This document shows, piece after piece, positions 311-10,177 of a stretch of DNA of 64,000 nucleotides (position 1 is the stretch's first letter; each line of letters starts with the position of its first letter). The notes beneath the pieces were generated by a model, which saw only the letters and a program-made list of their open reading frames with translations, was not told the origin of the DNA and ran no database searches. Origin of the DNA: Escherichia coli (GTDB lineage: Bacteria; Pseudomonadota; Gammaproteobacteria; Enterobacterales; Enterobacteriaceae); NCBI RefSeq assembly GCF_003334405.1, contig NZ_QOWM01000003.1; one strand, 5' to 3'. A program made the translations under genes and the position numbers.

Positions 311-1813
311 TTACGCTACGGCTGCTTTCGCCGCTTTGTCTGCAGCGTCATCCTGCGTCATGCGGTGCAGTTTCGGCGCGGTCAGCAGCATCAGTACTGC
401 AATAACGGCAGTAGCGACACCAATCTGCAAGAATACGCGACCATAGACTTCCAGTGACATCAGCGGATCGGTAACGTTATCCGGCACAGCCATCATACCC
501 GCAACATAACCACCAATCAGGTTTGCACCGGCAGTGGTCAGGAACCAGCTACCCATAATGAAGCCCATCAGACGCTGCGGAACGAGTTGAGCAACCATTG
601 CCAGACCCAGACCAGAGATCATCAGTTCCCCGATGCTCTGCAGGCCATAGCTTGCGACCAGCCAGCTTACAGACACGATACCAGCGTCAGACGCGAATTT
701 CGCACCCAGCGGCAGAATCAGGAACGCACCAGAACACATCACCATGCCGATTGCAAACTTGGTTGGCATCGGCAGGGTATCGCCCATCTTGTTATAGATA
801 GTGGCCAGAATCGGACTACCGATGATGATCCAGAACGGGTTCAGTGCCTGATACTGCTCAGGTTCTACGGCCAGACCCAGAATGGAGTGCTCAACGTTAC
901 GAATCGCAAAGAAGTTCAGTGACGTTGGCATCTGGCTGTACAGCACGAAGAAGATAATGGCTTCGAGCATCAGGATGAAGGCAACGATCATTTTACGACG
1001 CGCAGCACCTTTCATCGCGAAGGCTTCTTTACCGAAGATAACCACGATACCGAAGGCAACAACGCCCAGCGCCATACGCGCAACTTCCTGATTGTGCAGC
1101 AGCCAGGTGGCGATAGCGATCAGTGCCACAACACCAATAATGGTCAGCAGCAGGTTACGGTAGTTGATAGGCTCGAAGTCTGGTTTTGAACCGTACTGTT
1201 TAACCCAGCGTTGGCAGAAGGCGAAGTTAACGATAGTGATCAGCAGGCCTACAACGCTCAACGCAAACGCAACACTCCAGCCGTATTTCGCGGCCAGCCA
1301 CGGCGTAGCAATCATAGAGAAGAAAGAGCCGATGTTGACGGACATGTAGTACATGGTGAATGCACCGTCCAGACGCGGGTCGTTTTTCTCATAGCATGTA
1401 GAAAGCAGAGAAGACGGGTTAGCTTTAAACAGGCCGTTACCGACCGCAATAGCCGCCATACCCATATAAACGATACCGGCGTCGTGACCAGACCAGGCAA
1501 CCAGAGCATAACCAATCGCCAGCACAATAGCGCCGAGCATAATTACGCGTTTAGTACCCAGTACCTTGTCACCTAACCAGCCGCCGATAGCGACCAGACC
1601 ATAAACCAGGGCACTAAAGGAAGAGAAAAGGGTGATTGAATCCGCTTCAGACATACCCAGTTGTTTAACCAGGTAAACAGCCATAATTCCTTGTAGGCCG
1701 TAATAACCAAAACGTTCCCATAACTCAATCGAGAAGATGAGATAGAACGCCTTCGGTTGTTTGAAAGCGTTCAAACTGACGCTTTCAGTTGGTTTTTGGT
1801 TTGCAGTGGACAC
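311..1813 (-). CDS. dtpA: Di/tripeptide:H+ symporter DtpA (TppB/YdgR), POT family
   Basis: 500-aa ORF; N-terminus [39 protein letters not shown] contains the POT/PTR2 signature; recognised as E. coli DtpA. Confidence 0.95.
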
Positions 1814-2423
1814 TTTTACCTCTTTTTTTACATCCCATATTAACGGGGGTGCTTTCTCGCGTTATGTATAAAAAACATACGCGCAATTGTTATAGTGGGA
1901 GGGGAAACGGCAGGTAATGTTCACTATCTTGCACTTTCAGACAAGTCCTTTGTAATAATCTGTTACATATAACTGAGGCGGGGAATTCAACCATTCCGGG
2001 AAATGTTATCCAGCGTTAAATTTTTCAAAAAACGTAACGGCAGATTTTTTCACTGCACTGAGAGGGGGGTGATGGCTTAACGGCGATATGTTCTGCTATT
2101 TAGCGTTTTTACTAGTGAGATAGTCCAGTTTCTGAAAAATAGCCAGTGTAATGTTTTGTAGGTCAATATTTGTTGCGTGTGTAAATTTAAATGATTTTAA
2201 CCTGATTCTTGCAATGTTTTTACATTGCGACAGCATCGTGATCTTGATCACGAATGAATAGAAAATTTCGCTATTAAAAAAACAATTAACCTGCATTTTT
2301 GGTTATCCGCAAACGGATTACCTGATGATAACGCTAAGCAATGGCATCATTGACGTTAAAAAGATGTTTTAAAAGAGGATAAAGAAAGGTTATCAATGGG
2401 GTAATCGGTGTTACCCCTTTTCT

Positions 2424-3059
2424 TCAGATGTCAACTTTCTCTTTGTATTCACAAAGATCTTCAATAATACAAGAGCCACAGCGGGGCTTGCGGGCAATGC
2501 AGGTATAACGCCCGTGCAGGATCAACCAATGGTGGCAGTCGACTTTAAACTCTGCTGGAACCACTTTCAGTAGCTTTTCTTCTACCTGTTCGACGTTTTT
2601 CCCCGGCGCAAATTGAGTACGATTACAAACGCGGAAAATGTGCGTGTCGACAGCAATAGTCGGCCAGCCGAATGCAGTGTTTAATACGACGTTGGCTGTT
2701 TTACGACCTACGCCGGGCAGGGCTTCAAGCGCAGCACGATCTTCCGGAACCTCGCCATTATGCTGCTCCAGCAAGATACGGCAGGTTTTGATGATATTTT
2801 CTGCTTTGCTGTTATAAAGCCCAATCGTTTTGATATAGGTTTTCACCCCTTCAACGCCCAGTTCAAGCATCGCTGCAGGCGTATTCGCCACCGGGTAGAG
2901 TTTCGCCGTCGCCTTATTAACACTGACATCGGTCGCCTGAGCGGAAAGCAGTACGGCAATCAGCAATTCAAAAGGCGAACTGAAATTAAGCTCGGTGGTG
3001 GGATGAGGATTGTTCTCACGCAGGCGAGTGAGGATCTCCAGGCGTTTTGCTTTATTCAT
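2424..3059 (-). CDS. nth: Endonuclease III (DNA glycosylase/AP lyase)
   Basis: 211-aa ORF with HhH-GPD motif (LPGVGRKTANVV) and C-terminal 4Fe-4S cysteine cluster (C-x6-C-x2-C-x5-C); last gene of the rsx-nth operon. Confidence 0.95.
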   Translation of the reverse strand: MNKAKRLEILTRLRENNPHPTTELNFSSPFELLIAVLLSAQATDVSVNKATAKLYPVANTPAAMLELGVEGVKTYIKTIGLYNSKAENIIKTCRILLEQHNGEVPEDRAALEALPGVGRKTANVVLNTAFGWPTIAVDTHIFRVCNRTQFAPGKNVEQVEEKLLKVVPAEFKVDCHHWLILHGRYTCIARKPRCGSCIIEDLCEYKEKVDI

Positions 3060-9321: not shown

Positions 9322-9537
9322 TTATTGGACATAGTGCCAGACGGACTTCGGTACCTGGCCGAGGTCAAACAAACGCCCGCCAGAAACCAGCTCTGCGCGA
9401 CGGTGATCGGCAGCACGATACATATTGATCAGTTCCTGATCGTCCGTCAGGGTGTAATTAAGATGGTCGTAGAGTTTTTCCAGACTTTCGAGTGAACTGA
9501 TTTTGCGAAATTTTAATAAGTAGTCCTGAACAGTCAT
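9322..9537 (-). CDS. cnu: OriC-binding nucleoid-associated protein Cnu (YdgT), Hha family
   Basis: 71-aa [74 protein letters not shown], recognised as Cnu/YdgT. Confidence 0.93.
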
Positions 9538-9809
9538 AAAAGGTCCATAAAATAATTAATACCAAAGGGGTAGGTATTATTAGTGATGATAAAATTTCAC
9601 CAAAAGTGAACGCTTGTGTTATTACAATAATAAGAATGCGCTGATGGCAAATATTCAGGGATGAAAAACTGCTCTGAAAAGAGTAACGCGCTTTACTATC
9701 CCTGACAATCACCAACAACATCGAACAAGATAATAAATTCCTGGTTTAATATCCGACAAGTGAAAACATGCACCCGGACGGGCAGCATGTCGCTCCACAA
9801 GTGCAGAGC

Positions 9810-9935
9810 TTACTTGTGTTGTACCGAAGCACTCTGTTCAGGTGGCTGATAGTTGTCAATGTGACTCGCCACGCCAAGAAGAATGACTGAAACGACAAGA
9901 ACGATCCAACCTGTTAATTCAATAAGACGATTCAT
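9810..9935 (-). CDS. blr: Small membrane protein Blr (41 aa)
   Basis: Internal Met of the 66-aa track ORF gives MNRLIELTGWIVLVVSVILLGVASHIDNYQPPEQSASVQHK (41 aa, single TM helix); start is complement of cat at 9933-9935. Confidence 0.8.
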   Translation of the reverse strand: MNRLIELTGWIVLVVSVILLGVASHIDNYQPPEQSASVQHK

Positions 9936-10177
9936 TACAGCCCACATCTCTCTTGATTGATCCATTAACTTCAGGGGGTAAATGTTACTTAGCAATAATA
10001 GCTCCAGCAAGATTTTTACTGAGGTTTTTGCGATATTTAGCTTTTGTCGTTGGAAAATTCGCTATTTTTTTGACTTAAGTTAAACAACATCCCTTATTGC
10101 TGGCAGGTTATTAAACTGTTGAGCGTGGGTAAAGGATAGTGTCAAATAGCCATCATACTTCAATGAGAGGCAATGAC

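Follow-up and report, generated by a model that had tools for sequence, protein, structure and literature searches.

What fills the 610 bp of DNA between nth and dtpA, and does it serve the gene that follows it? DtpA is the main proton-coupled importer of di- and tripeptides (and of peptidomimetic drugs) in Escherichia coli, and RefSeq annotates nothing in the long spacer upstream of its gene. We analyzed a window of 64,000 nt of E. coli DNA (contig NZ_QOWM01000003.1), that is, the whole stretch under study, which is the reverse strand of MG1655. A window position w converts to the NC_000913.3 coordinate g as g = 1,714,582 - w, and all positions below are window positions unless stated otherwise.

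The initial annotation, made from the sequence alone, described this spacer as unusually long and AT-rich with several A/T tracts, and both descriptions hold. The spacer occupies exactly 1814-2423. No other of the 34 gaps between genes in the adjacent 50 kb is as long, the runners-up measuring 523 and 423 bp. At 36.9% G+C, against a window mean of 50.0% (sd 3.8%, 610-bp windows), it is also the lowest-GC 610-bp stretch of the window, falling to 30.8% at 2100-2300, and it contains eleven runs of A or T of at least 5 nt each. Only two other places in the window have 610-bp stretches below 40% G+C: ~9451-10160, the blr-cnu region, and ~61201-62010, where the cryptic prophage Qin ends (intQ pseudogene, ynfP). 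A search of the spacer for a REP/BIME-type repetitive element returned no tandem repeats, and the other repeats were short and at chance level.

Within the species the locus is close to universal. An 851-bp query around the spacer matched K-12 records at 100% identity and was found in 5,424 of 5,426 complete E. coli genomes, at a median of one place and a maximum of two per genome (5,424 genomes), which makes it single-copy nearly throughout. To look beyond E. coli, we scanned species-representative genomes of Enterobacteriaceae and recovered 80 dtpA loci, which represent more than 20 genera. The nth gene lies upstream of dtpA in all 80, and the spacer measures 570-620 bp except in Kosakonia (~1,175 bp), Intestinirhabdus (738 bp) and Siccibacter (641 bp). 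The recurrence of the 570-620 bp length in nearly all sampled Enterobacteriaceae indicates that spacer length is a conserved trait and no accident of E. coli. Kosakonia carries an extra ORF between nth and dtpA, divergent from dtpA and encoding a predicted membrane protein of 152 aa.

In a MAFFT alignment of about 70 species, conserved and variable blocks alternate from the ribosome-binding site to position 2297, with conserved blocks spread over all of 1817-2297. Fourteen anchors, from CAGGTTAAT to the -10 block, hold exact register in nearly all of ~60-70 species, and the only shifts occur in Escherichia (+1 bp) and Franconibacter (1 bp). Of 68 species, for example, 62 have AAATTTCTAT and GGATAGTGAACATTAC at a distance of 337 bp, and the six Escherichia sequences have them at 338 bp. 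Across ~365 bp, the ~70 species differ by two 1-bp indels only. An ungapped matrix of 382 columns could be built from this array; 155 of its columns are 92% identical, and 109 are near saturation (pairwise identity 0.33 vs 0.26 for random sequence) and still free of indels. Indels are tolerated in the flanking leader and in the nth-proximal part, not inside the array. The conservation profile has no 3-nt periodicity and contains weak spectral components at 10.3 bp and 21 bp. As judged from the alignment, the array behaves as a set of binding sites in the DNA, with selection acting on the distances between them. Because the distances from box to promoter are kept exactly while the DNA between the boxes mutates freely, we infer that the sites support a phase-locked complex.

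Table 1. Features of the nth-dtpA region in window coordinates, except for the Kosakonia ORF, which is given in the coordinates of its own locus
Feature	Position	Strand	Remarks
nth	2424-3059	-	
dtpA (= tppB/ydgR)	311-1813	-	GTG start codon at 1811-1813
Whole nth-dtpA intergenic region	1814-2423		610 bp, 36.9% G+C; no RefSeq annotation inside
Post-nth hairpin	2398-2417	-	Directly follows the stop codon of nth; nth 3' end or terminator
nth-proximal segment	2300-2423		124 bp; poorly conserved, indel-rich; source of nearly all spacer length variation
66-aa ORF	2096-2296	-	E. coli/Shigella only; not a gene
Distal conserved module	2208-2293		From alignment; no factor assigned apart from CRP
CAGGTTAAT	2285-2293		Distal-module box
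T7 run	2276-2282		Distal-module element
AAATTTTCTAT	2258-2268		Distal-module box
Lrp-like sequence TAGCGAAATTTTCTA	2259-2273		Adjoins CRP box; mean match 0.83 across species
CRP box CGTGATCAAGATCACG	2237-2252		Centre 2244.5; ~335 bp upstream of dtpA start site
TGATAAC/TGTTAA-type boxes, after CRP box	Distal module		E. coli: inverted repeat GCAATGT-N4-ACATTGC
Inter-module spacer	2159-2207		~50 bp; sequence variable, length fixed; one extra base in Escherichia
Middle conserved module	2082-2158		Three boxes, no factor assigned
AAAACATTACAC	2143-2159 region		Middle-module box
TTTTTCAGA..TGG.CTAT.TCACT	2113-2139		Middle-module box
AATAGCAGAACATATCGCC	2082-2100		Middle-module box
Conserved box CAGTGAAAAAATCTGCC (2038-2055) and GadX peak	2038-2072		Box overlaps GadX ChIP-exo peak 2052-2072
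Conserved box GAAAAATTTAACGCTGGATAACATTT	2001-2026		From alignment; H-NS- and OmpR-like resemblance
OmpR ChIP-exo peak	1926-1985		Published as 1710621-1710680 (U00096.2); centre -46.5, just upstream of -35
dtpA core promoter P1	1909-1944	-	-35 TTGTCT (1939-1944), 17-bp gap, -10 AACATT (1916-1921)
dtpA 5' UTR	1814-1908	-	~96 nt; C/A-rich stretch, two conserved hairpins, SD GAGG (1819-1822)
Conserved C/A-rich stretch	1884-1908	-	+1 to +28; unpaired in predicted fold
Leader hairpin 1	1858-1883	-	Structure kept, sequence covarying
Leader hairpin 2	1830-1852	-	Just before SD; one compensatory pair
Kosakonia extra ORF	L046 1332-1790		Also in L047, L054, L056, L057, L059, L061, L072

At the dtpA end of the array, in the third of the spacer closest to the gene, lies the promoter itself. 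The start site implied by the OmpR and GadX ChIP-exo tables is at ~1909-1911, and 94% of species have the corresponding element, TTGyCT-17-AACATT, with a score above the threshold. Using a sigma-70 weight matrix of our own approximation on both strands, we found this promoter, P1, to be the sole sigma-70-like promoter kept across the family. The OmpR ChIP-exo peak encloses an invariant sequence, TATATGTAACAGATTATTACAAAGG (1948-1972), and OmpR binding upstream of the dtpA promoter also appears in ChIP-chip data. [quoted passage not shown] An A-to-T change adjoining the -10 element has been reported to raise dtpA mRNA ~23-fold and to sweep through starved cultures in long-term stationary phase. 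The OmpR dependence that the initial annotation had named for dtpA is supported by the ChIP-exo peak at -46.5 and by the fusion data, and its suggestion of a multi-site promoter fits the OmpR peak, the GadX peak, the CRP SELEX box described below and the further boxes conserved in the family.

Two conserved boxes lie between the OmpR peak and the middle module. The upstream one overlaps the published GadX ChIP-exo peak, which is placed at -151 and was scored as a repressor site; within this box, CAGTGAAAAAA (2045-2055) has no assigned factor. The same holds for the downstream box, GAAATTTAACGCT..ATAACATTT (2001-2026), which is conserved. On the + strand, its segment GCGTTAAATT (2013-2022) matches 9 of 10 positions of what we take to be the H-NS nucleation motif, and this H-NS-nucleation-like motif is kept in 92% of species. 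The box as a whole bears a loose likeness to an OmpR tandem site.

The most recognizable element far upstream is a CRP box. We located the palindrome independently of any list of binding sites, and a CRP genomic-SELEX site reported in the nth>/>tppB spacer at 1.71036 Mb, CGTGATCAAGATCACG, coincides with it in both sequence and position. The box matches TGTGA-N6-TCACA with an extended GTGATC..GATCAC core; GTGATC-N2-GATCAC occurs once in the 64-kb window, against 0.12 occurrences expected by chance. At the same register, the box is present within 2 mismatches in 77% of species. The parts of the supplements of one CRP ChIP-exo study that were accessible contain no match to dtpA.

The neighborhood of the CRP box offers further candidates. 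The adjoining TAGCGAAATTTTCTA resembles YAGHAWATTWTDCTR, which we take to be the Lrp consensus, and serves as a lead only. In the literature, tppB is listed as a gene affected by Lrp; dtpA is not mentioned in the main text of an Lrp SELEX paper or in that of an Lrp ChIP preprint. Expression of tppB has also been reported to change 2.5-fold in an arcA mutant, and no ArcA ChIP peak for tppB was found. By eye, TGTTAA-N5-TGTT direct repeats beside the CRP box look like ArcA sites in most genera, not in E. coli.

We screened the array against 35 transcription-factor consensus sequences at a conservation-weighted threshold. Only the H-NS-like, Lrp-like and CRP motifs passed; FNR, ArcA (15-mer), IHF, Fis, CpxR, RstA, PhoP, Nac and CytR fell below the threshold of this screen. 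The Lrp, H-NS, ArcA and OmpR-like labels that we attach to boxes are putative and rest on such consensus sequences. Conserved boxes with no assigned factor comprise CAGGTTAAT, the T-run and AAATTTCTAT; the boxes that follow the CRP site; the three boxes at 2082-2158; CAGTGAAAAAA; and GAAATTTAACGCT..ATAACATTT. Some boxes resemble one another. ATAGCAGAACATATC (2082-2100) is similar to the -10 block ATAGTGAACATTAC (1913-1928), GAAATTT is found at F-rel -95 and again, in inverted form, at -338 (boxes 2001-2026 and 2258-2268), and ATTnnACCA is present twice, at -224 and -58. These likenesses could mean that one factor binds at several sites, or could be what is left of an old duplication.

Our explanation of the spacer, which is probably correct, is that it constitutes a composite cis-regulatory region for dtpA, one that works at the level of DNA, is phase-locked and involves several factors. 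A weak sigma-70 promoter starting at ~1909 depends on OmpR, which binds at about -40 to -65. Farther upstream there are eight or more additional conserved boxes, which reach to -385 and include the GadX-bound box at -151, the CRP box at about -335 and its Lrp-like neighbor. In this model, the bound proteins would form one phase-locked higher-order complex, whether through looped or wrapped DNA or through counter-silencing of H-NS on the AT-rich tract. The signals integrated there may include carbon supply (CRP), amino acids or peptides (an Lrp-type factor), envelope state and pH (OmpR and GadX) and possibly anaerobiosis, with the far-upstream CRP/Lrp-type module presumably modulating the OmpR-dependent promoter.

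OmpR, GadX and, in vitro, CRP are documented occupants of the region; the action of the distal half on dtpA, and the identity of most of the bound factors, we infer. Several observations weigh against a distal contribution, among them the absence of dtpA from the CRP ChIP-exo supplements searched and from the two Lrp main texts, and the failure to find an ArcA ChIP peak. The published fusion spanning -201 to +15 is by itself capable of OmpR-dependent activation and repression, and the CRP box has disappeared from Kluyvera and Pseudocitrobacter, where the adjoining boxes are retained, while the distal part is rearranged in Kosakonia. Of five Kosakonia loci that were scanned, four have a CRP-like box at a new distance, ~450 bp from the -10 block; the proximal and middle boxes have stayed beside dtpA in this genus.

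A stronger version of this model is also conceivable, and we advance it tentatively. The ~365 bp from CAGGTTAAT (2293) to the -10 element might operate as a single phase-locked nucleoprotein machine, resembling an enhanceosome, in which every base of spacing matters. It is likewise possible, at a similarly guarded level, that a CRP/Lrp-type module at -385 to -300 signals through the fixed-length spacer and the middle module, and we would not put more confidence than this in the idea that the design has been conserved since the origin of the Enterobacteriaceae. The complex promoter region is real, ordinary in kind and already known in part. What is new, from comparison of genomes, is the near-indel-free architecture of ~365 bp across the whole family, together with several conserved boxes to which no factor is assigned.

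We considered whether the CRP box at 2237-2252 instead marks a second, CRP-dependent promoter, P2, from which dtpA would be transcribed with 300-400 nt of leader. E. coli does carry TTGACC-19-TATTTT at 2136-2166, along with other candidates in the dtpA direction. However, these E. coli candidates sit in non-conserved spacer, and on neither side of the CRP centre did we find a conserved -10-like hexamer at the distance of a class II promoter (~29.5 bp) or of a class I promoter (a helical multiple beyond). The long leader that P2 would produce is, moreover, without conserved RNA structure. We therefore regard P2 as unlikely.

The array might alternatively serve the chromosome or the rsx-nth operon rather than dtpA, as an island for H-NS or another nucleoid protein, as an insulator or roadblock to read-through from nth, or as a domain boundary. 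The G+C content, the lowest in the window, agrees with such a role, as do the H-NS-nucleation-like motif found in 92% of species and a weak U-tract that follows the nth hairpin in the nth direction. Yet the boxes keep their register relative to the -10 element of dtpA, not relative to nth, and all of the length variation falls between nth and the array. In Kosakonia, where a gene has been inserted, dtpA has retained its proximal and middle boxes. A role of this kind is improbable in our estimation.

Another alternative is that the distal or middle modules encode a transcript of their own, such as a small RNA, the mRNA of a small protein or an antisense RNA that heads for nth and ends at the hairpin at 2398-2417. 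E. coli alone would encourage this idea. In E. coli the T-run of the post-nth hairpin is on the opposite (+) strand, the hairpin folds better on that strand, several promoter-like sequences in the AT-rich tract score level with the real promoter, and no known start site is near the strong CRP box. The comparison points the other way. Other genera have a different hairpin after nth; the E. coli T-run and sequence are not conserved even in E. albertii, and segment 2300-2423 as a whole is unconserved even within Escherichia. A + strand antisense terminator at 2398-2417 is not supported, its T-run not being conserved. On neither strand is any promoter conserved besides P1, for sigma-70 or for alternative sigmas: with consensus sequences for sigma 24, 28, 32, 38 and 54, the best mean match was 0.71 and none was convincing. 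A consensus promoter scan of the E. coli spacer returned 0 sites, having missed the real, activator-dependent promoter as well. In the accessible parts of the supplements of a 3'-end atlas, no entry for dtpA or nth was found.

Neither RNA structure nor coding potential lends this alternative more weight. RNAalifold, run in 100-nt windows on both strands over the upstream 380 bp (-380 to 0), gave an energy of 0 throughout, and Rfam searches at permissive thresholds returned chance matches only (eukaryotic snoRNAs and unrelated sRNAs), with E >= 0.87. The initial annotation had raised the possibility of an unannotated small RNA or small ORF here, while remarking that the one listed ORF (2096-2296) had no convincing Shine-Dalgarno sequence. 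That remark is correct, as no such sequence precedes its ATG (AACCAAAAATG). The possibility itself found no support in the comparison: the 66-aa frame is cut to at most 29 aa in E. albertii, and its ATG is kept in under half of species. No NCBIfam family matched the 66-aa ORF or two shorter ORFs. A positional ORF scan across species yielded two conserved start/stop pairs, which we discarded as by-products of the GAACAT and TTACAAA DNA motifs, and no other conserved small ORF. Many assemblies of E. coli and Shigella list the 66-aa ORF as a 'hypothetical protein' (the cluster has 449 members), and these entries are likely a recurrent over-annotation. Judged by conservation, then, a small RNA, a small protein, a second promoter or a long leader in the spacer is not supported, and an independent transcript strikes us as quite improbable.

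It is least credible of all, and very improbable, that the distal boxes have no function and survive, perhaps from a promoter duplicated long ago, merely through chance or because mutations are locally rare: some boxes are indeed alike (ATAG..GAACAT at 2082-2100 and in the -10 block, GAAATTT twice, ATTnnACCA twice), but neighboring columns are near saturation where the boxes are 92% identical over more than 20 genera, and only two 1-bp indels separate ~70 species in ~365 bp with flanks that are full of indels.

Downstream of the composite control region, the dtpA leader has properties of its own. The long regulated leader proposed at the outset proved right in kind and wrong in length: the transcript has a structured leader that is a target of the small RNA GcvB, and this leader is ~96 nt long as measured from the implied start site (111-118 nt in the species comparison), not 610 nt. 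Hairpin 1 has a median energy of -11.2 kcal/mol and a median z of -2.3, with z below -1.5 in 84% of 68 species. Its sequence can be wholly different between genera while the stem persists. As no U-run follows it, hairpin 1 is not an intrinsic attenuator. The tppB/dtpA mRNA is reported as a target of the R1 region of GcvB, listed as verified in Salmonella and conserved in E. coli, with RIL-seq chimeras; the conserved C/A-rich stretch at 1884-1908 is likely the target site, by prediction. For a riboswitch or a structured leader as long as the spacer there was no sign: no Rfam family matched, and no consensus structure was found upstream of the start site.

Two further sequence relationships were noticed around the leader. 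In the dtpA orientation, CTTTATCCTCTTTTAAAACATC (2363-2384) could pair with the ribosome-binding region of dtpA, GATGTAAAAAAAGAGGTAAAAG (1813-1834), the two being 77% complementary over 22 nt. It may mask the ribosome-binding site only if read-through transcripts from nth span the spacer, and perhaps the match is a chance occurrence in AT-rich DNA. On the + strand, a terminator-like hairpin with a T-run lies at 1761-1788, antisense to the first dtpA codons.

The array is of interest beyond dtpA. With substitutions tolerated and essentially no indels over ~365 bp in more than 20 genera, it is an unusually clean natural dataset that shows a constraint of spacing and helical phase on bacterial promoters, and a good test case for it. 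The comparison also exposes five or more conserved boxes to which no factor has been assigned. A practical side exists as well. In the literature, the 'nth-ydgR' locus figures as a site of chromosomal integration or of landing pads, in three papers on such integration and on libraries of genomically encoded promoter reporters. Insertions there may split the distal module from dtpA, so the site is possibly not regulatorily inert, and its users should be cautious. As an integration site, nth-ydgR is treated as neutral.

How does this region compare with known systems? One of them is the same locus, the OmpR-dependent promoter of tppB/ydgR, whose original study is said to be that of Goh, Siino and Igo in 2004. 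OmpR just upstream of a weak promoter is what both the ChIP-exo and the ChIP-chip data place there. The published fusions and peaks for dtpA cover about -200 to +15, and the accessible portions of these reports do not describe the boxes from -205 to -385 or the fixed register.

At ompF, OmpR binds sites F1-F3 and a distal site, F4, at about -380 to -350, with an IHF-assisted loop. The dtpA region is similar in having an OmpR-activated weak promoter, an element ~350 bp upstream, and a response to OmpR that turns from activation at low levels to repression at high levels. It differs in that its distal element is a CRP box with no evident OmpR site, in that repression at high OmpR occurs without the distal element (in the -201 fusion), and in that our consensus screen found no IHF site.

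The pap control region (papI-papBA) has CAP bound at -215.5 with phased Lrp sites and H-NS. There too, a far-upstream CRP site lies beside Lrp sequence in AT-rich DNA, the Lrp site at dtpA being putative and the dependence on spacing deduced from conservation. Unlike pap, dtpA has neither the GATC/Dam arrangement of phase variation nor a divergent regulator gene, and by analogy the resemblance would be one of mechanism only.

Finally, the csgD-csgB intergenic region is a long AT-rich spacer bound by OmpR, CRP, IHF, H-NS, CpxR, RstA and others. The two regions are alike as long, AT-rich enterobacterial control regions with many factors, OmpR and CRP among them. Whereas the csgD spacer lies between divergent operons, nth and dtpA are co-directional, and the array would serve a single transporter gene.
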